From Parcubacteria group bacterium (GTDB lineage Bacteria; Patescibacteriota; Minisyncoccia; Phycocordibacterales; Phycocordibacteraceae), in assembly GCA_028286615.1 (NCBI GenBank), contig JAQBRG010000005.1, positions 913 to 64,912 on the forward strand: a stretch of 64,000 bases of DNA, given 5' to 3'. The first letter of the stretch is position 1, and every line of letters begins with the position of its first letter. Positions 2,131 to 55,208 of this stretch are shown piece by piece. Under the pieces are notes generated by a model. The model saw only the letters and a list, made by a program, of their open reading frames with translations, was not told the DNA's origin and made no database searches. The translations under genes were made by a program, and so were the position numbers.

Positions 2131-3144
2131 ATGGCTTCTTTCTCGCCCCGCATAGGTATAGACCTAGGCACGACTAACGTGCTGGTTTTCATTCCAGGCA
2201 AAGGCGTGGTGCTGAACGAGCCCTCCGTTGTTGCGGTCTCCACAGAAACAAACAAGGTGCTTGCTATAGGTGTTGAGGCCAAAGCGATGATTGGCCGCAC
2301 ACCTGACTCCATCATTGCGTACAGACCTATGAAGGACGGCGTTATTGCGGACTATCGCGTAACCGAAGCCATGCTCCGTTATTTCATGCGCAAGGCACTC
2401 GGACGTTTTCAATTCTTTAAGCCAACCGTACTTGTTTCAGTACCGGCTGGCGTAACCTCAACTGAGAAGCGTGCGGTTATCGAAGCTGCTGTTAAGGCCG
2501 GAGCTCGTGACGCATACGTAGTTAAGGAACCTATCCTTGCCGCTATTGGTGCAGGTATTCCCATTCATGAACCCATGGGACGCATGGTTGCAGACATTGG
2601 TGGAGGCACTATAGACGTGGCGGTGATATCGCTTGGAGGTATTGTTGCTTCAACATCCGTTAAGTGTGCCGGCAACAAGCTTGATAGGGCAATCGTGGAC
2701 CACCTTAAGAAGCAGTACAACCTCGCTATCGGAGACAAGACAGCTGAGGAGGTAAAGATAACAGTTGGTTCTGCGGTACCTGTCTCAGAAGAACTTATGA
2801 TGCTGGTAAAGGGAAGAGATCTGGTATCCGGTCTCCCACGCACCGTTGAACTCAAGACCAATGAAGTGGTGCATGCGCTTAATCGCGAACTAAGAGAGAT
2901 GATGGCTGCAGTACGTAAAGTGCTTCAGGACACTCCTCCTGAACTTGCTTCAGACATAATCGACAATGGCATTATTCTTACAGGAGGCACCTCTCAGCTT
3001 CGCCATCTTCCTGAGCTAGTGTTCAGACGCACTGGTGTCCAAGCAAAACTCGCAGACGATGCATACTTCTGTGTTGCGAGAGGTACTGGCGTTGCGCTTA
3101 AACATTTGGATACGTATAAGCAGAGTATTATCTCGAAGAAGTAG
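2131..3144 (+). CDS. mreB: rod shape-determining actin homolog MreB
   Basis: IGIDLGTTNVLV...EPSVVAV phosphate-1 motif and DIGGGT phosphate-2 motif; 337 aa. Confidence 0.85.
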   Translation: MASFSPRIGIDLGTTNVLVFIPGKGVVLNEPSVVAVSTETNKVLAIGVEAKAMIGRTPDSIIAYRPMKDGVIADYRVTEAMLRYFMRKALGRFQFFKPTVLVSVPAGVTSTEKRAVIEAAVKAGARDAYVVKEPILAAIGAGIPIHEPMGRMVADIGGGTIDVAVISLGGIVASTSVKCAGNKLDRAIVDHLKKQYNLAIGDKTAEEVKITVGSAVPVSEELMMLVKGRDLVSGLPRTVELKTNEVVHALNRELREMMAAVRKVLQDTPPELASDIIDNGIILTGGTSQLRHLPELVFRRTGVQAKLADDAYFCVARGTGVALKHLDTYKQSIISKK

Positions 3145-3162
3145 GCAATATAGAAATGTAAA

Positions 3163-3197
3163 AAGGGCTCCCGACGCGCGTTGCGAAGGGAGCCCTT
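3163..3197. terminator. bidirectional intrinsic terminator hairpin between mreB and the convergent high-GC gene
   Basis: aagggctccc...gggagccctt perfect stem flanked by A and T runs. Confidence 0.55.
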
Positions 3198-3209
3198 GGT
3201 CGTTCTGAG

Positions 3210-3905
3210 CTAGAAGCTCTTGCTGAAGCCGACGTTGAAGGCCGGCTTCGTGCGCTGGATCAGCTTCGTGTTGACGGAAAGCGAGAAGCTTCCGAAGTTG
3301 CGAGCGAGCGTGATGTCAGCATAGGCGGTGTTCAGGTCGTCGGTGAAGTCGCGAGACTCCGCCGTGTCGATGTCGAGCGACACCTTTTCCGAGATGGGCA
3401 CGTTGATGCGTGCGCCGGCGCGGATGAGGCTGGTGTTCGGAAAGTCCTTGGTGCCGAGCCACTCGGTGCCGCGCACGTACGGCATAACCGTAACAGCGCC
3501 AGCTTTGAACGAGTGCCCGAAGTCGGCGTAGATCGCGATGACATCGTCATCGAAGTTGCCGAAGTCGGAAAGAAGCCAGTAGGCTCCCGACACCTTGTAC
3601 TCGACGCCAGCGATCTTGCCAGCGTTGGTGACGGTGGCGTCGATTTCGTCGCCATAGCCGCGGTGGCCGTAGCGGCCGGGGGTAGACAGGTCGGTCGAAG
3701 TCCAGAGGTCGTACGACCAGCCCTTGCAGGTGTAGGTCACGCCGCCTTGGAAGACGGGCGAGTCGACGGTGGCGCCGTTGTCGGTGAAGACGTAGCGGTT
3801 GGCCACGTTCGCATAGACGGTTTTGCTGCAGGGTTCAGCGAACGCCGGCAGCGCCGCGAGGAACAAAGAAGCGAAAGCGAAAAGGGCAAGCGCGCGGTTG
3901 CGCAT
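3210..3905 (-). CDS. predicted outer-membrane beta-barrel protein resembling the proteobacterial TIGR02001 family; high-GC, likely foreign
   Basis: Signal peptide MRNRALALFAFASLFLAALPAFA, then YANVANRYVFTDNGATVDSPVFQGGVTYT..GWSYDLWTS (TIGR02001-like), and a C-terminal Phe. GC far above the flanking DNA. Confidence 0.5.
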   Translation of the reverse strand: MRNRALALFAFASLFLAALPAFAEPCSKTVYANVANRYVFTDNGATVDSPVFQGGVTYTCKGWSYDLWTSTDLSTPGRYGHRGYGDEIDATVTNAGKIAGVEYKVSGAYWLLSDFGNFDDDVIAIYADFGHSFKAGAVTVMPYVRGTEWLGTKDFPNTSLIRAGARINVPISEKVSLDIDTAESRDFTDDLNTAYADITLARNFGSFSLSVNTKLIQRTKPAFNVGFSKSF

Positions 3906-4006
3906 CTTGAATCTCCATTGTCAGAGGTTGTGGCGGTTGAGTCCGCACGCATACTAAATACTAGTATGAACTATATTTGACTCTTTGTCAAATATGTATA
4001 AAAGCC

Positions 4007-4522
4007 TTATTTAACGCGGGTTAAATGGAGTGCTCCTCCTCCGGTCATATAGCTCATGGTCATCTCTGTAGCAGTGAGTTGGGTGATGGCGTAGTAGAGA
4101 ACCTCTTCTGGGAACTGCACTTTTACGATAACGGCATCTTTCACAACAGGAAGATTAACTGGCTCCTTTGAAGGGTTCGTAACAATAGACCATTCTCCTG
4201 TAACAGTTGCGTCATCATTTCCTGCATAGGTATCAGTTACATTTCCGGATGCAGTAAAGGTACGAGCTGAACGTGAGTCGTCTTGGTTACGCCATACGCC
4301 AACGATACCTGTACGCACCTTGTCGCTCGGGTTGGTGCTAACGGGCTTTGTGGATTCTGTAGGAGAGGTACTGGTAGCAACTTCTTCCTCGGTCTGCACA
4401 CGCGTTACGCGGTAGTTATTCACGAGCCAGTAGCCGGCTATGGTGAGGACTACGCCTGCTGCCAAACCTACGACTGCTGCGAGAATGATCTGCGTTCTGG
4501 TATCCATGTTGTTCGTATCCAT
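4007..4522 (-). CDS. hypothetical membrane-anchored protein
   Basis: Internal start MDTNNMDTRTQIILAAVVGLAAGVVLTIAGYWL (TM anchor). The longer upstream extension overlaps holB on the other strand and was dropped. Confidence 0.4.
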   Translation of the reverse strand: MDTNNMDTRTQIILAAVVGLAAGVVLTIAGYWLVNNYRVTRVQTEEEVATSTSPTESTKPVSTNPSDKVRTGIVGVWRNQDDSRSARTFTASGNVTDTYAGNDDATVTGEWSIVTNPSKEPVNLPVVKDAVIVKVQFPEEVLYYAITQLTATEMTMSYMTGGGALHLTRVK

Positions 4523-4579: not shown

Positions 4580-5257
4580 ATGGCGCACCATGCGTATGTC
4601 TATGCGGGCGAACTCGAAGAGGGGATAGAAGCCGCGCTTGTCTTTGCTGAGAACGAGCTCTCGATGCCCGTGCTTGCGAACCCTGATATTGCTGTGTGGA
4701 GACACGGACTCTTTTCTGTCGATGACGCCCGTGCTGCCGGCATGTTCGCGGCCCAGGCTCCTATTGGCGACAAGAAGCTCATGGTTATCGCTGCGAGCCG
4801 TCTCTTCCATGAGGCACAGAACGCACTTCTCAAACTCTTTGAAGAACCGCCTGAGGGCACAACTCTCATCTTGATTATTCCCGCAGAGGGAATACTTCTC
4901 CCAACACTTCGTTCGCGCATCTTAATGCTTCCGAACCAGACAAAAGAAAAAGGAAAGGCAGAGGAATATCTGAAAGCAACTGTTGAAGCCAGAGCCAAGA
5001 TTGTTGCCAAACTCATAGATCGCACTAAAGGAGACAAGGACGAAGAAAAACAAGCAGCACGTCTTGAGATGCTCCATATATTAGAAGGCATAACGCGTGC
5101 TGCTTATGCGGCGAGAAGCAAAGCGAAAGATACGCATGAGCTTGATCTGTTTCTTTCAGACCTCGACCGATTCATTCCCATGCTTCACGACCGGTCTGCT
5201 CCCTACAAACTTATCTTCGAACACCTTTCGCTAGTACTCCCAAAGGAGCTTCGCTAG
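4580..5257 (+). CDS. holB: DNA polymerase III delta prime subunit-like (short form)
   Basis: N-terminal HAYVYAG plus LLKLFEEPPEGTTLILI clamp-loader box; lacks an intact P-loop, as is typical for delta prime. Confidence 0.55.
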   Translation: MAHHAYVYAGELEEGIEAALVFAENELSMPVLANPDIAVWRHGLFSVDDARAAGMFAAQAPIGDKKLMVIAASRLFHEAQNALLKLFEEPPEGTTLILIIPAEGILLPTLRSRILMLPNQTKEKGKAEEYLKATVEARAKIVAKLIDRTKGDKDEEKQAARLEMLHILEGITRAAYAARSKAKDTHELDLFLSDLDRFIPMLHDRSAPYKLIFEHLSLVLPKELR

Positions 5258-5831: not shown

Positions 5832-6935
5832 ATGTCTATCGTTATCTTTATTCTCGTCCTCATTGCGCTCATCGTAGTGCACGAGCTTGGACATTTCTTT
5901 GCAGCAAAGCTCTCAGGCATGCGCGTAGACGAGTTCGGTATCGGGTATCCACCTCGTGCTCTTACCATCGCTCGCAAGAATGGAACGGCGTATACCCTCA
6001 ACTGGCTGCCATTCGGCGGCTTCGTTAAGATCTTTGGCGAAGACCCGATTGCAGGAACCTTGGGAGATCCTAAAGCCTTCTCTTCTCGTCCTCGCATTCT
6101 GCAGGCATTAACGCTTGTTGCAGGTATTGCCATGAACCTCGTGTTTGCATGGGTGCTGCTTTCAGTATCTCTAGGACTCGGAACATTGCGAGCACTTTCT
6201 CCTGAAGAAGCTGCTATGGCTCCTGACGCGCAGCTTGCTGTTGCAAACGTGCTTCCAGGATCTCCTGCAGAAGTTGCAGGTCTTAAACAGGGCGATGTTA
6301 TTACGCACATTGAAGGCGCAGGAGGGGAATACATTGGAGCAGACCCCGTCCAGTTCACCGCTTTCGTTTCAGAACATGAGGCGGGTATTCCTCTCGCAAT
6401 TCATGTTAAGAACCAGGCAGGAGTTGAGCGCGATATAACCGTCGCAACCAAGAAGGGAGTTGTTGTTTCTGAGCCAGAGCGCGCCGCGCTTGGTGTAGGG
6501 CTCGCAACTATTGGTACCGTTAAGGTTGCTTGGTACAAAGCACCTGTAGACGGCCTTATCCTAACCTGGGAAGTTACCAAAGAGACCGCTTTCGCACTCA
6601 TTCACTTCTTTGCAGGCATCTTTACCTTTACAGCAGACCTCTCTCAAGTAGCAGGACCTGTGGGTATTGCGGGAGCGGTAGGGAACGCAGCGAGCGACAG
6701 TTTCGCCTCTCTGCTCTCTATAACTGCCCTTATTTCTATAAACCTCGCTCTCATTAACTTGCTCCCAATCCCAGCACTTGATGGAGGACGTCTTCTCTTT
6801 GTTATTGTCGAAGCTATAACCAGGAAGCCTATTAACGTGACATTCGTGAACGTGGTTAACACCGGAGGTTTTATGCTCCTCGTGCTATTGATGTTGGTTA
6901 TAACAGCACACGATATTTTTAAAATCGTTGGCTAG
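5832..6935 (+). CDS. rseP: RIP site-2 zinc metalloprotease RseP
   Basis: HELGHF zinc motif, PDZ region and LINLLPIPALDGG motif. Confidence 0.85.
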   Translation: MSIVIFILVLIALIVVHELGHFFAAKLSGMRVDEFGIGYPPRALTIARKNGTAYTLNWLPFGGFVKIFGEDPIAGTLGDPKAFSSRPRILQALTLVAGIAMNLVFAWVLLSVSLGLGTLRALSPEEAAMAPDAQLAVANVLPGSPAEVAGLKQGDVITHIEGAGGEYIGADPVQFTAFVSEHEAGIPLAIHVKNQAGVERDITVATKKGVVVSEPERAALGVGLATIGTVKVAWYKAPVDGLILTWEVTKETAFALIHFFAGIFTFTADLSQVAGPVGIAGAVGNAASDSFASLLSITALISINLALINLLPIPALDGGRLLFVIVEAITRKPINVTFVNVVNTGGFMLLVLLMLVITAHDIFKIVG

Positions 6936-7785: not shown

Positions 7786-9051
7786 GTGGAGACTATGCGG
7801 CAAACCCAGCTATTTACGAAGACCAGGCGCGAGGCTCCAAAAGACGAGACTGCCAAGAACGCGCAGCTCCTCATTCGTGCAGGATTCGTGCACAAAGAGA
7901 TGGCAGGAGTGTACTCATATCTGCCTCTTGGACTCCGTGTGCTTGAAAACATTACTCAGATTATCCGTGAGGAGATGAATGCTATCGGCGGGCAGGAACT
8001 GATAATGACAGCACTTCAAGACAAAGAACTCTGGAGTCGTACTGATAGATGGGACGACGAGAAAGTTGATAACTGGTTCAAGACTTCTCTTAAGAGCGGA
8101 GGAGAGACCGGTCTCGCTATTACGCACGAAGAACCGCTTACCCGTATCATGACGGACCACATCTCTTCGTATAGAGATCTTCCGGTATTTGCATACCAGT
8201 TCCAGAATAAGTTTAGAAACGAGATGCGCGCGAAGTCTGGCGTTATGCGTGGACGGGAATTTTTAATGAAAGATCTCTACTCGTTCTCAGCAACACAAGA
8301 GCAGCATGAGGAACAATACGCTCTAGCGCGCGAGGCATACAAGAAGATATTCGAGAGACTGGGTATTGGTTCTCAGACTCATATAACCTTTGCCTCAGGA
8401 GGTGTGTTCAGCGAATTCTCTGAAGAATTCCAGACCATATCTGAAGCTGGCGAAGACCTTATTTATGTAGACGAAGAGACAGGTGTGGCGGTTAACAAAG
8501 AGGTGCTTACAGACGAAACGCTTTCAACGCTTGGTCTTGTACGTGAGAAGCTGGTTGAAAAGAAGGCGATTGAGTCTGGAAACATCTTCCATCTCGGAAC
8601 TAAGTTCTCTGAGCCGCTCGGTCTTATGTATGCAGATGCTGACGGCACGAAGAAGCCTGTGATCATGGGTTCTTATGGTATTGGCGTTAGTCGCATGATC
8701 GGAGTGCTGGTTGAAACACTCGCAGACGACAAGGGAATCGTATGGCCCGAGGCTGTAGCGCCATTCAAGATTCATCTTGTTTCTCTAGTACCTAACGACG
8801 AAGTGTCAGTTGCCTACGCTGATGCGCTATATGACGAGTTCACCAAGATGGGAGCAACGGTTCTTTATGACGACCGAGATGCACGTGCCGGAGAAAAGCT
8901 CGCAGACAGCGATCTTATGGGCATGCCGTGGCGAGTGATTGTTGGAAAGCAGACGGTTGAAAGCGGGAATGTTGAGGTGGTTAACCGCGCAACGGGAGAA
9001 GTGAAGCACCTCACACGTAAAGAACTCATTTCTTGGGCTGGGACCGCATAG
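7786..9051 (+). CDS. proS: prolyl-tRNA synthetase (compact bacterial type without editing insertion)
   Basis: Class II aaRS motifs and bacterial ProRS N-terminus (QLFTKTRREAPKDETAKNAQLLIRAGF); 421 aa. Confidence 0.9.
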   Translation: METMRQTQLFTKTRREAPKDETAKNAQLLIRAGFVHKEMAGVYSYLPLGLRVLENITQIIREEMNAIGGQELIMTALQDKELWSRTDRWDDEKVDNWFKTSLKSGGETGLAITHEEPLTRIMTDHISSYRDLPVFAYQFQNKFRNEMRAKSGVMRGREFLMKDLYSFSATQEQHEEQYALAREAYKKIFERLGIGSQTHITFASGGVFSEFSEEFQTISEAGEDLIYVDEETGVAVNKEVLTDETLSTLGLVREKLVEKKAIESGNIFHLGTKFSEPLGLMYADADGTKKPVIMGSYGIGVSRMIGVLVETLADDKGIVWPEAVAPFKIHLVSLVPNDEVSVAYADALYDEFTKMGATVLYDDRDARAGEKLADSDLMGMPWRVIVGKQTVESGNVEVVNRATGEVKHLTRKELISWAGTA

Positions 9052-9053
9052 GT

Positions 9054-10109
9054 ATGGCAAAGCGATTTTCACGAAACTCTTTCTTCTCTAGCGACATCGG
9101 GATAGACCTTGGTACCGCAAATACGCTCGTATACGTTCGTGGACGAGGCATCGTTATCTCAGAACCGTCTGTTGTAACAATCAACGAAAAGACTGGACAG
9201 GTTGTTGCGGTCGGAAAGGAAGCAAAGTTAATGCTTGGAAAAACACCTCCACATATTCGTGCCGTACGTCCTCTTGAGCATGGCGTTATCTCAGACTTCG
9301 AAGTTACCGAAGAGCTGCTCGCATATCTTATTAACAAAGCGCAGGGAGGACGCTCTCGTCTTCTTGGTCCACGCGTTGTTATTGGCGTACCGACTGGCGT
9401 TACGAACGTGCAGAGCCGTGCAGTGCGCGATGCCGCTATAACCGCAGGTGCCCGAGAAGTATTTATTCTTGAAGAACCAATGGCAGGAGCTATTGGAGCA
9501 AAGCTTCCTGTTACCGAACCAATTGGCACCATGGTGCTTGATATTGGAGGAGGAACAACAGACATTGCGGTTATAGCGCTTGGAGGTGCTGTTGCTGGAA
9601 AGAGTTCTCAGGTTGCAGGAGACCGCTTTAACGAGAACATTACGGACTTCATACGCAGCGAATTCCAACTTGCGATCGGAGAGAAGACCGCGGAAGACAC
9701 GAAGATTGCTATCGGTGCCGTGCTTCCTCTTGAAGAAGCACTTGAGCGTCCTGTACGCGGACGAGATCTTGCAACAGGCCTTCCAAGAGAAATAGTGCTA
9801 ACCGATACGCATATTCGAGAAGCGCTGGCTCCTTCGCTTGATTCGCTTCTTGAAGCAATGAAGGAGGTTATTGAGAACACTCCTCCAGAACTTCTTTCAG
9901 ATGTGCTTGAGCGAGGCGTAACGGTATTCGGAGGAGGGGCGCTCTTGCGCGGGCTTCCTGAGCTTCTCTCAAAGATGCTCGGTGTGCCCGTGCACGTTGC
10001 GTCTGATCCGCTAACGGCCGTTGTGCGAGGTACGGGCATTGTAACTGAAGACCCACGTCCTTGGGTTGATACTTTCCTTAATGAAGATGCAATTATTCAA
10101 CAAAGCTAA
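9054..10109 (+). CDS. mreB: MreB paralog (second actin-like rod-shape protein)
   Basis: DIGIDLGTANTLVYV...EPSVVTI and DIGGGTTDIAVI motifs; start placed at the ATG directly after the proS stop. Confidence 0.85.
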   Translation: MAKRFSRNSFFSSDIGIDLGTANTLVYVRGRGIVISEPSVVTINEKTGQVVAVGKEAKLMLGKTPPHIRAVRPLEHGVISDFEVTEELLAYLINKAQGGRSRLLGPRVVIGVPTGVTNVQSRAVRDAAITAGAREVFILEEPMAGAIGAKLPVTEPIGTMVLDIGGGTTDIAVIALGGAVAGKSSQVAGDRFNENITDFIRSEFQLAIGEKTAEDTKIAIGAVLPLEEALERPVRGRDLATGLPREIVLTDTHIREALAPSLDSLLEAMKEVIENTPPELLSDVLERGVTVFGGGALLRGLPELLSKMLGVPVHVASDPLTAVVRGTGIVTEDPRPWVDTFLNEDAIIQQS

Positions 10110-20371: not shown

Positions 20372-20443
20372 GGCCCTATCGTCTAACGGTTAGGACGCTA
20401 GCCTCTCACGCTGGAAATCGGGGTTCGATTCCCCGTAGGGTCA
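20372..20443 (+). tRNA. tRNA-Glu (anticodon CUC), no encoded CCA
   Basis: Cloverleaf: acceptor GGCCCTA/TAGGGTC, D-arm TCGTCTAACGGTTAGGAC, anticodon loop CTCTCAC, T-arm CGGGGTTCGATTCCCCG. Confidence 0.8.
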
Positions 20444-20515
20444 CAGATTTTAGAGCCTTGATATACAGGGCCGTACAGAGGTACCTAAGTAGTCGTTGGA
20501 AAACTAAAGAAAAAA

Positions 20516-20571: not shown

Positions 20572-21693
20572 TTAGAAGAGCGTCGGACGAACCTCCGCTC
20601 CTTCGTAGATTTTCAGCCAGCCCTCCTGGAGGAACCAGGGCGGAACGTGCGCCTTTTCAAGCGTCCCTTCCGCCTCCAGCGTGCGGTATCCCCACACACA
20701 GTACTCCTCGGAGCCACGAGCAACATGTCCATGTCCGCTGTGATCGGCTTGCGGCCACGGAGACCGTTGGCCGAGCTCGAGTAGGCGGTTGTGTGCGCAT
20801 TTCATCGGGGCCCGGAAGCCGCCGCTGATCTCCACGTACCGCTTGCCCTGACCGAGAGCGGCGCGCAGGAGCTCTACGAGCTCCTCCACACCTTCTCTTG
20901 AACGGAGCTTGGTCGTGATTAGTCTGACGCTCATTGACCGGCCGGTCGCGTAGAAGGGATGCTTTACGTTCTTCCAGCTGCTTCCAAAGTTGTTGTTACT
21001 GTGTCGGTCGGACTGAGCGGCCTTCGGGCAGTAGATGCTGCGCACCGCGTTGCCGCGAATGTATGCATCGGTGTCACCATTGACCATGCCGACCGACTCC
21101 CATCCGTTCATCACGGGATGGTAGGACGGGACAATATGCAGGTGGTCGTTGTGGGTCGGCACCCACTCACTATGCCAGAAGATGAAGCGGTCTGGCTTCG
21201 CAACCGTAAACTGCAGGCCGACCTCGTTGTCGAAGATCGTGCGCTGCGGAATTAGGCTGTAGCGAAGGCTCGGGTGACCGACTTGAAAGACGGCCGCCTG
21301 AAGCGCCTCGTCGGCGGTCTTATGGACCGCGACGATCACGTCCACCCGAATAGGACGAAGGTGCTTCACGATCGTCTCGCGATCGAGCTTCTGGATTTCG
21401 TCGGGGATAAGCCCGAAGTCCATCAGCCGGCGCGAGTCGGAGGCCGTGAGATTGTGGTTGCGATATTCCGCGACCATCAGGCCGCCCATGGCCGGCGTGC
21501 GGCGGTTCTTCACGAACTGCTGAGCATGCGACGCCGCAAGGCGTAGCACGGAGAGCTGAGTGTTGTCAGACGAATCGGCATAAAGCACGATCTCGTCGAC
21601 CTGGTCCAAGTAGTCGAGGTGGATTTCAGCCACAGGCTTTTTACCCTTGGACACAATCCACACCTGGCCGTTGAGTTGCAGCTTGAAGGACAT
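20572..21693 (-). CDS. hypothetical protein, possibly metallophosphoesterase-like; high-GC island next to tRNA-Glu
   Basis: 373-aa ORF with GC much higher than neighbours; weak DHLH...GDTDAYIRGN...GHGH motif series. Plus-strand ORFs inside it are GC artefacts. Confidence 0.4.
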   Translation of the reverse strand: MSFKLQLNGQVWIVSKGKKPVAEIHLDYLDQVDEIVLYADSSDNTQLSVLRLAASHAQQFVKNRRTPAMGGLMVAEYRNHNLTASDSRRLMDFGLIPDEIQKLDRETIVKHLRPIRVDVIVAVHKTADEALQAAVFQVGHPSLRYSLIPQRTIFDNEVGLQFTVAKPDRFIFWHSEWVPTHNDHLHIVPSYHPVMNGWESVGMVNGDTDAYIRGNAVRSIYCPKAAQSDRHSNNNFGSSWKNVKHPFYATGRSMSVRLITTKLRSREGVEELVELLRAALGQGKRYVEISGGFRAPMKCAHNRLLELGQRSPWPQADHSGHGHVARGSEEYCVWGYRTLEAEGTLEKAHVPPWFLQEGWLKIYEGAEVRPTLF

Positions 21694-37601: not shown

Positions 37602-38696
37602 TTAGGAGGCGTCAGCAGGCTCCTCGACCTTCTTGACGTAGGCGACGACCTCAGCAAGCCACTCGTTCATATTTCCGCGAGGCTTGAGATTGCATTCATT
37701 GAGCCATTTCTTGGCAGCTTCGCTCTTGAGCTCAGCTCTAAGAGCGTCATGATCAACCTCGACAGTGCCGGCCTCCACGTTGATGGTGAGCAGGCGGAAG
37801 TTTTGTCGACGACTCATCCACGCAGTGCGAACGAATCGTTCGAAGATAGATGGATTCTTAGGATTGAATTTTCCGTCCAGTACTTCAACCCGCAGAGGGA
37901 TTGCGTGGCCGAGACCATCCGTCATCAGCGACGGAGTGAGGTTGATTTCGAATCGGGTGGCAGATAGGGCTTCGCGGAACTTTCTGGCGTCCGCCTCAAC
38001 TCGAGCCGCTGCGGTTTTTGCGTCAGCGAGGTCAGAGCTCTTATTGGCGATGGTCCTTTCCCTATCGGCAAGTGAATTTTGAAGCTCAGCGTTCTGAGTT
38101 TTCAGTTCATCCGTTTCAAGTGATGTGCGGGCCGTGGCAGCTCTGGTAGGCTTGCGGTTGCGGGTAAAGACAACTAAGAGGAGTAGGGCGCCCAAAGCGG
38201 CGAGGATCAAGCTCTCGATGATTCTCCACAGATTTATAGTTGCGATCTTTTTATTCGCGTCCGCCAACTGAGTTTTCACGTTCGCGGGCTCTTTCTGTGC
38301 GAGGGCCAGTTTGGCCTTAGCGTCAGAAGCCTCTTTCTGCGCAGCAAGCAGCTGCGCCTTGAGCATCGATGTGGCAGCATCTTGCGCCACGATCTGGTTC
38401 GGCGTAGTGGCCGACGGGATATTGATGCCGGTCGCTTTCGTGGCGACGAGAATTTCGCGTTCGCAGGTGCCCCACACATGGTGAACCATGGGGGTGTTGC
38501 GGCCATTGATGATCAGTTCCGTACCGGCGACGAGATGCCGAGCACCCATTTCAGTCAGGTGGTTCTGGGCGAGCGTAGCGTTCTTGCAGACGTTGATTTC
38601 AGCGTTCGTGGGCTTCGCTTGCGCAACCGTGGCAACGCCAAGGCAGACGACAAGAACGGCCATGAAGGCCGCTATATGGTGTTGGAGCGATTTCAT
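37602..38696 (-). CDS. hypothetical bitopic membrane protein with signal peptide, Cys-containing ectodomain, coiled-coil and TM; high-GC
   Basis: 364 aa, GC well above surroundings; signal peptide MKSLQHHIAAFMAVLVVCLGVATVAQA, central Ala/Gln/Lys coiled-coil, TM (ILAALGALLLLVVF). Confidence 0.45.
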   Translation of the reverse strand: MKSLQHHIAAFMAVLVVCLGVATVAQAKPTNAEINVCKNATLAQNHLTEMGARHLVAGTELIINGRNTPMVHHVWGTCEREILVATKATGINIPSATTPNQIVAQDAATSMLKAQLLAAQKEASDAKAKLALAQKEPANVKTQLADANKKIATINLWRIIESLILAALGALLLLVVFTRNRKPTRAATARTSLETDELKTQNAELQNSLADRERTIANKSSDLADAKTAAARVEADARKFREALSATRFEINLTPSLMTDGLGHAIPLRVEVLDGKFNPKNPSIFERFVRTAWMSRRQNFRLLTINVEAGTVEVDHDALRAELKSEAAKKWLNECNLKPRGNMNEWLAEVVAYVKKVEEPADAS

Positions 38697-41106: not shown

Positions 41107-41144
41107 CCGGTCTGAACAAACATGTTCAGACCGGCTAGTTTTTA
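41107..41144. terminator. strong bidirectional terminator at the 3' end of the RT gene
   Basis: ccggtctgaac aaacat gttcagaccgg 11-bp perfect stem with T/A runs on both sides. Confidence 0.6.
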
Positions 41145-42352
41145 GGTATTTCAATATCGTAATCGCGTGCAAGTTTTAATACCGCTTGGCGAAACGATAC
41201 TCTCTCAGCGAATTGTACAAAGTCGATTACGTCCCCGTGTCTGCCGCTTGAAAAGCAATGCCAGAAACTCTTCTCCGGAACCACGAAGAACGAAGGGGTC
41301 TTCTCTTTTGTGAACGGGCTGAGGCATACGTACTCTCTGCCTCTCTGCGTGAGAGAACAATAAGAAGCTATTACCGCTACGAGTGGCGCATACTTACGCA
41401 CGCCATCGACGAACTCAATGCTTAAACGATTAGATTCGCGAGCCCATCGTTTGGGCAGCAAGCCCTCATCTTGAAGCTTGAAAATCCGTAGGGCGCATTC
41501 GTGCAAAAGCACCTTGAAGTTAGGTGAGACTTTTGTTCGACTGCTGCGAGTTCTTCCAATCGATCGAACGTGACTAACCAAACCGAGAAACGAATGTGCT
41601 TCTTCCGGTGTGGTTATGGCTCCTGCGAGCAGTGTTGCCAACTTCTGGCTTTGTTCGACAGTTGGACCCATGTATCCTTTCGGAGTCAGAACCACACCCG
41701 TTATTGTGATTGAAGACTTGCATCTATCTTTCACGAATGATTTTCGACGGTTAATTGAAAAACCTGCAGCTGACACCACGTCCCGGATTCGTTTTCGCAA
41801 AATATGCGGAATGGGATCCATCGAAGAAATGGTCAGATCGTCGAGATACCGGGTGTATACCGTCCGCGGCATGTCGATAAGATTACGTATACGAGAATCA
41901 ATCTCATGCGCGCAGTACAGATCGAACAGGGCAGGGGAGCAGGGTGCACCAACTGCCAAGCCGCCATCCTTGGAAGCACAGTGTGTTTTCAAGAATTTTA
42001 GCGTAGAAGCAGGATGGGTAAGCCGAGTATCGAGTGCATGCAATGCGTGTACCAGTTTGGTAAGAGACACGTTTGCATACGCTTCTCTAACATCAAGCTG
42101 GTAGAAATATCGGTTCTCAATATGCCACGCTGCGTTGTCTTTTCCTGAGCGTCCACTTAAGGCACCGAACGAAGAAAACAGTACAAAGTTGATATCAGGT
42201 ATGTCCTGTAGATAACCAAGCAGTCTCGTGTGCACTCTGCGCATTGCAACATTTGGATGCGCGATAAGTCGCTTCTTGCCCTTCGGGTATTGAATACTCC
42301 AGTCAAAGAGCGGAACACCAGAAGAGGTGTCCGCGAGCTCGGAGAGCTGCAT
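41135..42352 (-). CDS. reverse transcriptase (retron-type, NAxxH motif) fused to a C-terminal DnaG-primase-type zf-CHC2 zinc finger
   Basis: RT motifs: FYQLDVREAY (A), GAPCSPALFDLY (B'), YTRYLDDLTI (C, YxDD), NAAWH (retron NAxxH), ITITG. C-terminus CLSPFTKEKTPSFFVVPEKSFWHCFSSGRHGDVIDFV matches the zf-CHC2 of DnaG. Strong AGGAGG RBS 8 nt upstream. Confidence 0.8.
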   Translation of the reverse strand: MQLSELADTSSGVPLFDWSIQYPKGKKRLIAHPNVAMRRVHTRLLGYLQDIPDINFVLFSSFGALSGRSGKDNAAWHIENRYFYQLDVREAYANVSLTKLVHALHALDTRLTHPASTLKFLKTHCASKDGGLAVGAPCSPALFDLYCAHEIDSRIRNLIDMPRTVYTRYLDDLTISSMDPIPHILRKRIRDVVSAAGFSINRRKSFVKDRCKSSITITGVVLTPKGYMGPTVEQSQKLATLLAGAITTPEEAHSFLGLVSHVRSIGRTRSSRTKVSPNFKVLLHECALRIFKLQDEGLLPKRWARESNRLSIEFVDGVRKYAPLVAVIASYCSLTQRGREYVCLSPFTKEKTPSFFVVPEKSFWHCFSSGRHGDVIDFVQFAERVSFRQAVLKLARDYDIEIPKN

Positions 42353-54460: not shown

Positions 54461-54602
54461 CGCCAAACTACTTCAAAAACTCGAATCCTGTGTACTGAGC
54501 TAAATTTGACAATCTAAGTCAAACATGTTATATACAAATATCAGTCCATGCGACTGAGTGGCGGGATTGGCCTGCCACGTTCCTTCATGCAAGGAGAAGA
54601 CG

Positions 54603-55208
54603 ATGAGTGAATTTGACCGTCTGGGCGTCGTTCGATCGACGGCTATTGCCGCAGCCAATGCGGTGGTCAACCACATGAACATCGGACAGTTCATTTCGGA
54701 GTTCGACAAGATCAACGACTATACGCTGCGAGCATGTAAGTTCCAGGGTAATGCTGAGGTGCAGATTGAGGGCCGTACGAATCATGACCTTTGGGTCTAC
54801 CCAACCTGCACGGTGATTTTCAAGAACAATCGGCAGGCAGGGTTCCCGATCGATCGAGTGTACGTTTCCGTGACGTACGCAGGTCGCGACGGAGTGCATT
54901 CGAATCGCCAGTACTACGTCTGCACGTTCTACGAGGACGTGGCGGTCGCGAGACTGGCCCGTTCACCGCACGACGAGACCGAAGTCGTGGTCTTCAGCAG
55001 TAATAGTCAAGGGAAGTTCTACTTCTCCAAAGACCATTGCCAGCCCTACGCCAACGGATTCGTCCCGACGAGCCACAAGCTGCCGTGCAAGGTGAAGGGT
55101 CGCCTTGGCCTGTCCGAAGGGCTGGTCTGTACGCGTGAGGAACTGATCTTCGTGTTCTACGACGACAAGAAGGAAGTCCCTAACCCTGACGTCCGCTACT
55201 TGTCCTAA
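54603..55208 (+). CDS. cassette gene G3: hypothetical protein (high-GC)
   Basis: 201 aa, own promoter TTGACA-17-TATATA at ~54488..54520 and RBS aaggag; GC clearly higher than neighbouring cassettes. Confidence 0.45.
   Translation: MSEFDRLGVVRSTAIAAANAVVNHMNIGQFISEFDKINDYTLRACKFQGNAEVQIEGRTNHDLWVYPTCTVIFKNNRQAGFPIDRVYVSVTYAGRDGVHSNRQYYVCTFYEDVAVARLARSPHDETEVVVFSSNSQGKFYFSKDHCQPYANGFVPTSHKLPCKVKGRLGLSEGLVCTREELIFVFYDDKKEVPNPDVRYLS

Follow-up and report, generated by a model that had tools for sequence, protein, structure and literature searches.

TorF/Gcw_chp barrels, represented by the NCBIfam model TIGR02001 (TorF family putative porin) and the Pfam family PF09694 (Gcw_chp), form a family whose function is as uncharacterised as that of the protein discussed here. 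NanC and KdgM conduct acidic sugars, a property that is attributed to their basic lumen. Patescibacteria, also known as the candidate phyla radiation (CPR), are treated as monoderm in work on the evolution of cell envelopes, and the way in which they draw nutrients from their hosts is unknown. The family of barrel genes that we describe here fits neither picture of these bacteria. It is represented by a gene on the minus strand of a 64,000-nucleotide stretch of contig JAQBRG010000005.1 (assembly GCA_028286615.1, positions 913 to 64,912), the whole of which we call the window.

A preliminary description of this DNA had pointed out an outer-membrane-type barrel gene of high GC content beside mreB, and had suggested that it was acquired from Proteobacteria or joined to the contig by a chimeric assembly. 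We favour a different account, to which we give a probability of roughly 60%. The gene is intact, has signals of its own and codes for a predicted 12-stranded barrel of a TorF/Gcw_chp subfamily known so far from Patescibacteria only; it is a cassette that is exchanged laterally within the phylum at a slot between mreB and holB, and neither a proteobacterial import nor a product of mis-assembly. The puzzle at the level of the organism, an outer-membrane-type barrel in a supposedly single-membrane bacterium, is real and extends to a whole gene family.

A barrel family of Patescibacteria

The barrel gene opens with ATG and codes for 231 amino acids. It comprises two features:

3210 to 3905, minus strand: barrel coding sequence, with the signal peptide in residues 1-23 and the predicted mature 12-stranded barrel in residues 24-231 (from the list of open reading frames (ORFs); homologues to E = 8.8e-51)
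3837 to 3905, minus strand: predicted Sec-type signal peptide, residues 1-23, with cleavage between AFA and EP (from the sequence and a helix over residues 2-17 in the structural model)

The signal peptide, MRNRALALFAFASLFLAALPAFA followed by EP, appears to combine a basic n-region, a hydrophobic core and an AFA-E cleavage site, in keeping with the N-terminal Sec signal expected of an outer-membrane barrel, and 83 of 96 aligned family members have a comparable N-terminus. At the other end the protein closes with NVGFSKSF, so that its last residue is the aromatic one of a beta-signal. Of the 96 members, 76 end in F, W or Y, 52 have G at position -6, and most have a hydrophobic residue at position -5; the C-terminus of the family thus resembles the beta-signal of outer-membrane proteins. 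Six residues are near-invariant (Y38, Q53, E87, D89, P142 and G164), and D86, D120 and D121 are common. Two cysteines, Cys26 and Cys60, come and go together: both are present in 46 members, neither in 48, and a single one in 2. This is the pattern expected of a disulfide, which points to a location outside the cytoplasm. Three other frames overlap the gene (3513-3980 on the plus strand, 3332-3655 and 3737-3952 on the minus strand). We rejected them as by-products of the high GC content, under which stop codons are scarce; homologues exist for the 3210-3905 frame alone.

An AlphaFold2 model built with the 96-sequence alignment has a predicted local distance difference test score (pLDDT) of 95.1 and a predicted template-modelling score (pTM) of 0.83, and places 12 long strands after an N-terminal helix over residues 2-17, which is the signal peptide. 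When this model was compared with the PDB by Foldseek, the top 50 matches were all integral outer-membrane barrels. The best geometric match was NanC (2wjr, template-modelling (TM) scores 0.62/0.69, root-mean-square deviation 4.2 Å), and the KdgM-type VhGalP, OmpG, Tsx, autotransporter and FapF barrels also matched, all with probability 1.00. A search of PDB sequences with the profile gave nothing significant (best E = 0.14). Over the 12 strands the mean Kyte-Doolittle hydropathy is +1.62 on the hydrophobic face and -0.99 on the polar face, a contrast that was reached in 0 of 2000 within-strand shuffles. As predicted, the barrel is closed, its antiparallel strands are even in number, its outside is hydrophobic and its lumen polar. 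The preliminary description had read a signal peptide, amphipathic strands, a C-terminal Phe and an outer-membrane-type barrel from the letters of this frame, and in all of these it agrees with the profile, AlphaFold2 and Foldseek results.

It had also named TIGR02001 as the family, and here the result is divided. The match is full-length (E = 8e-7) and colinear over nearly the whole model, signal peptide and barrel included (residues 5-212 against positions 5-213 of 244), but its 28.9 bits fall short of the curated cutoff of 47.15. Pfam gave no family for the protein even at E <= 10, so that it neither reaches the gathering threshold of PF09694 nor joins the KdgM family. Among the 96 relatives, TIGR02001 matches 18 (best 1.6e-12), PF09694 matches 15 (E <= 0.01), and a few match the autotransporter, OMP_b-brl, MipA or BBP2 barrels. 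In terms of its sequence, the protein is a divergent branch of the TorF/Gcw_chp superfamily, homologous to it and a member by neither curated threshold.

A word-indexed search recovered no homologue with the single barrel protein and only 5 with the 96-sequence profile, and was too insensitive for this family, therefore an exhaustive HMMER search of 1.84 billion cluster representatives was needed. This returned 106 matches at E <= 1e-3 and 15 at E <= 1e-30, of which the best is 44% identical. Exact-sequence look-ups found no protein identical to the barrel or to the MreB of the window. Named relatives are labelled Patescibacteria, Parcubacteria or Paceibacterota, and all named database members are called 'hypothetical protein'. 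Nine relatives have as their contexts the small housekeeping neighbourhoods typical of Patescibacteria; the one exception among those that could be named or placed lies on an unclassified contig of orphan genes. Where names or contexts can be checked, the subfamily has so far been found only in Patescibacteria. Our literature search found no paper on beta-barrel porins in Patescibacteria or CPR bacteria, none that characterises TorF/Gcw_chp and none in which the present family is described. One further match is of another kind: P0053 (MGI6603971.1, 2474 aa) matches barrel residues 88-122 in 18 separate stretches, and is probably a repeat protein of two-strand hairpin units with an architecture unrelated to the barrel.

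The host can be placed by its MreB. With the window MreB as anchor query and one genome scanned per species, we obtained 80 loci whose MreB is 80-91% identical, all of them metagenome-assembled Patescibacteria. The labels of these metagenome-assembled genomes (MAGs) are Paceibacteria, Parcubacteria, Kaiserbacteria and Minisyncoccia, while one project says Saccharibacteria and one MAG Bacillota. The window belongs to Patescibacteria, and is Paceibacteria/Kaiserbacteria-like; the minimal, possibly monoderm-like host of the preliminary description is borne out, in that the phylum is regarded as monoderm (PMC12102498; bioRxiv 10.1101/2021.05.31.446380). Other genes of the window form the housekeeping set of a small genome and include a second mreB, mreC, PBP2, greA, mraW, ftsI, a Mur ligase, dnaB, recR and tRNA synthetases. 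No gene for outer-membrane biogenesis, BamA/Omp85 included, was found in the 40 ORFs scanned in these 64 kb of the genome. A separate gene at 41135-42352 (-) codes for a 405-aa protein in which, unusually, a reverse-transcriptase domain (RVT_1, residues 24-208) is fused to a C-terminal DnaG-type CHC2 zinc ribbon (313-404).

The slot between mreB and holB

The barrel gene stands between two conserved genes and shares this slot with a second occupant:

2131 to 3144, plus strand: mreB (NCBIfam NF010539, 443 bits), the conserved left border of the slot, 80-91% identical in 80 Patescibacteria species
4007 to 4486, minus strand: gene for a 159-aa protein with one N-terminal membrane anchor, between the barrel gene and holB; second occupant of the slot
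4580 to 5257, plus strand: holB (DNA polymerase III delta', NCBIfam), the conserved right border, followed by frr, rseP and proS; this backbone order is kept across 80 loci

The order mreB-holB-frr-rseP-proS is the same across the loci of relatives, to which we give L-numbers (L007 is the same contig as L080). What varies is the space between mreB and holB. This gap is at most 70 bp, or an overlap, in about 27 of the 66 loci where both genes are present (the overlap being 4 bp in several), and 180-2900 bp in the others. A sensitive six-frame profile search of the 80 species loci showed that 13 of them have a barrel homologue in the slot (L012, L018, L022, L023, L033, L046, L048, L049, L054, L057, L059, L070 and L080). 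Three more carriers were reached through protein matches (L001 on a 608-kb contig, L004 and L094), so that 16 other independent assemblies have a barrel in the same place. The 13 species differ in arrangement: 10 slot copies are convergent with mreB and 3 co-directional, and L048 has two. In L048 the barrels are in tandem 3' of mreB, at 2220-3764 and 3854-4447 (-); the first occupies residues 250-512 of a frame of some 515 codons, and may have an N-terminal extension or a miscalled start. The preliminary description had held that an ancestral gene would show itself by high-GC homologues being universal at this position in related genomes. Homologues of high GC are indeed there, but in only 13/80 species, in both orientations and as differing subtypes.

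At least three groups, very unlike one another, can be told apart among these copies. The window barrel groups with those of L001, L004, L007, L046 and L054 at 30-45% identity, and its nearest HolB (L001, 65%) accompanies its nearest barrel (43%). Elsewhere barrel and backbone part company. No two backbones of the set are closer than those of L007 and L059 (MreB 89%, HolB 62%), but the barrels of this pair, on opposite strands, share just 16% identity. MreB is most similar between the window and L023 (91%), and here the barrels are only 26% identical.

The family also occurs away from this slot. In Parcubacteria C7867-001 a copy lies between a TrmB-like gene and mgsA (L090), and mreB and holB abut in the same genome (L052); in L092 a copy lies between a hisS-like gene and ybeY-ftsA-ftsZ. 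Two remote members, L098 and L099, each have the gene at 6001, head-to-head with recG. The rest of their neighbourhoods differ, and this arrangement suggests that insertion has also recurred beside recG. The L098 copy has a DsbB gene 2 kb away. Another remote member, P0089, is found in L096 (1-16768; JGI 3300042261 Ga0451520_0000270, about 100 kb) amid a long series of small co-directional ORFs. Among these ORFs only one FHA-domain protein has a Pfam match and 0 of 10 tested have a PHROG match, and the barrel there has a GC content of 0.47 against 0.455; L096 looks like a phage or other mobile element of no recognised kind.

Convergence with mreB and the mreB/holB flanks were both reported in the preliminary description, and both are present; it did not mention the gene at 4007-4486 (-) that separates the barrel from holB. 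The 159-aa protein has no match in Pfam or NCBIfam. Its homologues adjoin holB in L001, L010, L015, L016, L033 and L034, whether a barrel is present or not. The protein and the barrel have a slot in common, and may have nothing else. The mreB of the slot is one of two mreB paralogues 6 kb apart, at 2131-3144 and 9033-10109, the second being followed by mreC and PBP2, and the duplication is likewise seen in L001 and L007. A search for direct repeats flanking the slot gave nothing convincing. An exact 12-nt repeat, GAGAGGTACTGG, brackets the barrel at 3078-3089 (3' end of mreB) and 4363-4374 (inside the 4007-4486 gene); by a rough estimate, chance alone would give about 0.08 such repeats per 1.6 kb, and it may be a coincidence.

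Signals that would make the barrel gene a transcription unit of its own are found on both sides of it:

3163 to 3197, no strand: GC-rich hairpin between the mreB and barrel-gene stop codons (inverted repeat I1, 15-nt arms, 5-nt loop)
3906 to 3962, minus strand: putative 5' leader, about 55 nt long, in which a Shine-Dalgarno GGAGA lies at 3912-3916 and a small candidate hairpin at about 3930-3948
3963 to 3991, minus strand: promoter-like site from a consensus scan, with -35 TTGACA (3991-3986), a 17-nt spacer and -10 CATACT

The gene looks like a monocistronic cassette with its own promoter-like, leader and terminator signals, and the functional unit would span about 3163-3995. The extent of 3150-3960 in the preliminary description was slightly too narrow. 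The perfect terminator that it saw shared with mreB is real as a hairpin and less than perfect: 13 of 15 positions are paired (87% complementary, the outer 10 bp perfect), and the TTTTT follows on the minus strand only, which makes it a good intrinsic terminator for the barrel gene and a weak one for mreB. A simple terminator scan did not list this hairpin. Equivalent hairpins with a T-run stand 3' of the homologues in L001, L004, L007 and L094.

Upstream, the promoter-like site matches the consensus at 10 of 12 positions, where one such site is expected by chance in the region. Its -35 box lies inside a perfect 9-bp palindrome (I6), ATATTTGAC n5 GTCAAATAT, at 3973-3995. A box cTTGACAAA recurs about 85-95 nt 5' of the start codon in the window, L001, L004, L007, L094 and the non-slot L092 (where it reads TTGACTAA), with a -10-like hexamer about 17 nt after it, TATAAT in L001. 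The homologues also have a ribosome-binding site of the GGAG type and, in much the same part of their leaders, a hairpin that keeps its pairing while the stem changes in sequence from locus to locus, as judged by eye and without statistics. This could be a conserved mRNA leader of barrel genes.

Composition, origin and destination

The barrel gene is the strongest compositional outlier of the 64 kb. Its GC content is 0.616 and its GC content at third codon positions (GC3) 0.849, against means of 0.490 and 0.479 (standard deviation 0.074) for the 54 other ORFs of the window, which gives z-scores of 3.7 and 5.0. In a 300-nt profile the GC content goes from about 0.47-0.51 up to 0.59-0.64 within the gene and down to 0.44 beyond it. 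By tetranucleotide usage the gene lies at a distance of 0.649 from the average of the window (against 0.376 +/- 0.045), further off than all 362 sliding windows. Codon usage is like that of a 62-65% GC genome (CGC 100%, GGC 84%, ATC 100%). In this respect the preliminary description was correct: the gene stands well above its flanks in GC, and the codon-usage and tetranucleotide comparisons that it proposed mark it as compositionally foreign. C/(C+T) is 0.85 and G/(G+A) 0.84, compared with 0.47 and 0.47 in core genes; since C- and G-ending codons are equally raised, this is a general compositional shift and not a mere preference for C over U.

The same excess is found throughout the family. 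Barrel genes lie at least 4 GC points above their own flanks in 20 of 22 distinct genomes, L054 and L096 being the exceptions. Examples of barrel and flank GC are:

L001: barrel 0.619, flank 0.489
L007: barrel 0.603, flank 0.500
L057: barrel 0.63, flank 0.50
L098: barrel 0.577, flank 0.456
L099: barrel 0.585, flank 0.431

High GC characterises the family as a whole and does not single out the insertion in this window. Barrel GC also follows backbone GC in part (slope 0.53, r = 0.72). Translational selection was considered as the source of the high GC3 and rejected: NNC and NNG codons rise equally, and frr and greA in the window are not GC3-rich. In L099 the highly expressed neighbours are poor in GC3 (rpsF 0.24, efp 0.29, recA 0.34) while the barrel has 0.70, so ordinary selection for translation does not explain the excess. 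The excess might come from circulation through an unsampled GC-rich gene pool, from GC-biased gene conversion where recombination is frequent, or from selection on the mRNA of this particular gene. As the excess persists over copies that are 16-45% identical at no fewer than four genomic positions, the family is a possible test case for GC-biased gene conversion against a hidden high-GC pool.

Accessory genes of this genome in general seem to be GC-richer than the core. The second strongest outlier of the window is a 373-aa orphan ORF at 20572-21693 (-), with GC 0.596, GC3 0.754 and no match in Pfam or NCBIfam. A tRNA-Glu(CTC) at 20372-20444 lies directly before it, the pair follows just after mraW-ftsI-Mur ligase, and may be a tRNA-linked insertion. 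Further orphan ORFs with raised GC3 are found at 54558-55208 (+, 0.72) and 37602-38696 (-, 0.63); the product of the latter combines a signal peptide with a coiled coil and a membrane segment.

In the simplest reading, the hypervariable mreB-holB slot would host a cassette that may be replaced or lost frequently and passed laterally among Patescibacteria. Lateral movement within the phylum is likely, given the patchiness of the gene, its two orientations and the very different barrels that sit in close backbones. Alternatively, the gene could have come recently from a high-GC proteobacterium and be a non-functional or newly arrived passenger. A codon usage suited to such a donor, a sole named family match that was described from Proteobacteria and the lack of the gene in most close relatives all favour this. 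However, nothing above 44% identity exists among the 1.84 billion representatives, that best match is from Patescibacteria, the placeable matches are patescibacterial bar the one contig of orphan genes, and TIGR02001 scores the protein under its cutoff. The gene is also intact, and shares the family residues, the Cys pair and the expression unit with its homologues in Patescibacteria. Import from Proteobacteria is therefore largely refuted, and we regard it as very improbable. The idea that a diderm fragment was joined into a patescibacterial contig during assembly fares worse still. Composition does change sharply at about 3160 and 3950, but these boundaries coincide with the putative terminator and promoter, which are themselves conserved at homologous loci, and the recurrence of the family in the same slot of 16 other assemblies, from different samples and assemblers, rules out a chimeric join; for practical purposes this explanation is refuted.

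More weight, although we still consider it unlikely, goes to an old vertical resident of the slot that is often lost and sometimes inverted or moved, and whose GC content would be kept up by a gene-specific force (mRNA or codon selection, or GC-biased gene conversion) and not by transfer. Several observations agree with it: the slot shared by 16 other assemblies, the nearest HolB and nearest barrel both being those of L001, the partial tracking of host GC, the conserved promoter box, leader and terminator, and the mobility genes that were not found at the slot. It has to contend with L007/L059 and window/L023, where close backbones carry barrels of 16-26% identity (in opposite orientations in L007/L059), and with the 4-bp overlap of mreB and holB in more distant relatives, which suggests that the slot opened later. 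The equal rise of C- and G-ending codons and the low GC3 of rpsF in L099 are also unfit for ordinary translational selection.

A number of points weigh against lateral exchange of a cassette within the phylum, which we nevertheless prefer. We infer the exchange from patchiness, orientation and divergent barrels in close backbones, and from these only; vertical inheritance with relocation is compatible with the data. A Mantel test of barrel against backbone identity gave r = 0.12 (p = 0.22), with low power, as MreB against HolB itself gives only r = 0.24. Because C7867-001 carries the gene off the slot, 13/80 is the frequency of slot copies and underestimates that of the gene. By composition the gene is what a genomic island should be (GC3 z = 5.0, tetranucleotide extreme of 362 windows), but the search of 1.84e9 representatives found no close donor outside the lineage, its best match being the 44% one from Patescibacteria, and no hallmarks of mobility (integrase, att-like repeats, tRNA) flank the slot from mreB to holB. 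No phage copies were found by tblastn against 50,697 phage records or in two scans of IMG/VR; a fold search of BFVD gave generic barrels only, with uncultured-phage barrels at TM 0.46-0.56. The match to a promoter, taken alone, is no better than chance. The GC excess has no explanation under this account, and Patescibacteria are regarded as having no outer membrane (PMC12102498; bioRxiv 10.1101/2021.05.31.446380; PMC8871954).

As to function, the protein would be exported by the Sec pathway and cleaved after AFA, and in about half of the family a Cys26-Cys60 disulfide would form on the barrel side that holds both termini, to judge from covariation and strand topology. It is predicted with high confidence to fold into a 12-stranded barrel with a hydrophobic belt. 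As a monomer of about the size of NanC/KdgM, it would insert into a lipid layer outside the cytoplasmic membrane. The acidic D86, E87, D89, D120 and D121 would line a narrow water-filled channel that may favour small cationic or polar solutes. The most likely role, as read from the model, is thus a Sec-exported small-solute channel with an acidic lumen; the activity and selectivity of the channel are both putative. It is also conceivable, if improbable, that this is an exported protein without a channel, either a soluble or wall-associated ligand-binding barrel or a structural surface protein. The phylum is not expected to have such a membrane as outer-membrane barrels need (PMC12102498), the loops are short, and the conserved acidic motif (RGxGDExD, DD) could bind a metal or ligand. 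Against this, the outward strand residues are strongly hydrophobic (+1.62 vs -0.99), the top structural matches are without exception integral outer-membrane barrels, and the terminal aromatic residue and the G at -6 resemble a beta-signal.

Where such a channel would be inserted is a matter of rough judgement. Either some Patescibacteria own a lipid layer able to hold barrels, or the porin is delivered to another cell. We divide the weight almost evenly between the outer membrane of the host, an unrecognised outer layer of the symbiont itself (slightly less) and other destinations, and put neither of the two named options above about one third. Delivery to the host is attractive because fast divergence, cassette replacement and patchiness typify proteins at the interface between organisms, and because an epibiotic life style is reported for cultured Patescibacteria (bioRxiv 10.1101/2024.03.08.584096). 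Epibiotic Patescibacteria are regarded as having one membrane and no BAM machinery. As a tentative proposal that we would not yet bet on, the porin may enter a membrane other than their own cytoplasmic one, as a conduit for metabolites in the outer membrane of a diderm host or in the unrecognised layer of the symbiont, while swapping of cassettes at a hot spot, with GC-biased gene conversion, keeps its GC content high throughout the phylum. The family offers a concrete candidate with which expression, localisation and insertion into bilayers can be tested. For annotation the lesson is that, in CPR MAGs, a sharp GC island with a 'proteobacterial' domain should not be taken for contamination and removed.

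Comparison with described barrels

The TorF/Gcw_chp proteins (TIGR02001, PF09694) are the nearest described relatives. They share with the window barrel a length of about 230-245 aa, a signal peptide followed by a single barrel, and a profile match that is colinear over the full length. They were described from diderm Proteobacteria, whereas the hosts of the window subfamily are Patescibacteria, and the subfamily has its own set of invariant residues and its covarying Cys pair.

In geometry the closest likeness is to KdgM/NanC (PDB 2wjr, 2wjq and 8xua). TM scores are 0.60-0.62 by query and 0.67-0.69 by target, at 4.2 Å over about 230 columns, and these channels are likewise monomeric, of similar size and with short loops. 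Identity is 8-12%, however, and there is no Pfam match, so the resemblance is at the level of the fold only. The conserved residues of the window barrel are acidic, unlike the basic lumen to which the preference of NanC/KdgM is attributed.

A third comparison is with the accessory outer-membrane barrels that occupy variable or mobile loci in diderms and phages. Unlike these, the window family has no phage or plasmid copy that we found, no integrase or att site at its slot, and a carrier without a known outer membrane. What it has in common with them is that the gene is a self-contained single-gene cassette, patchily distributed, fast-diverging and foreign in composition.

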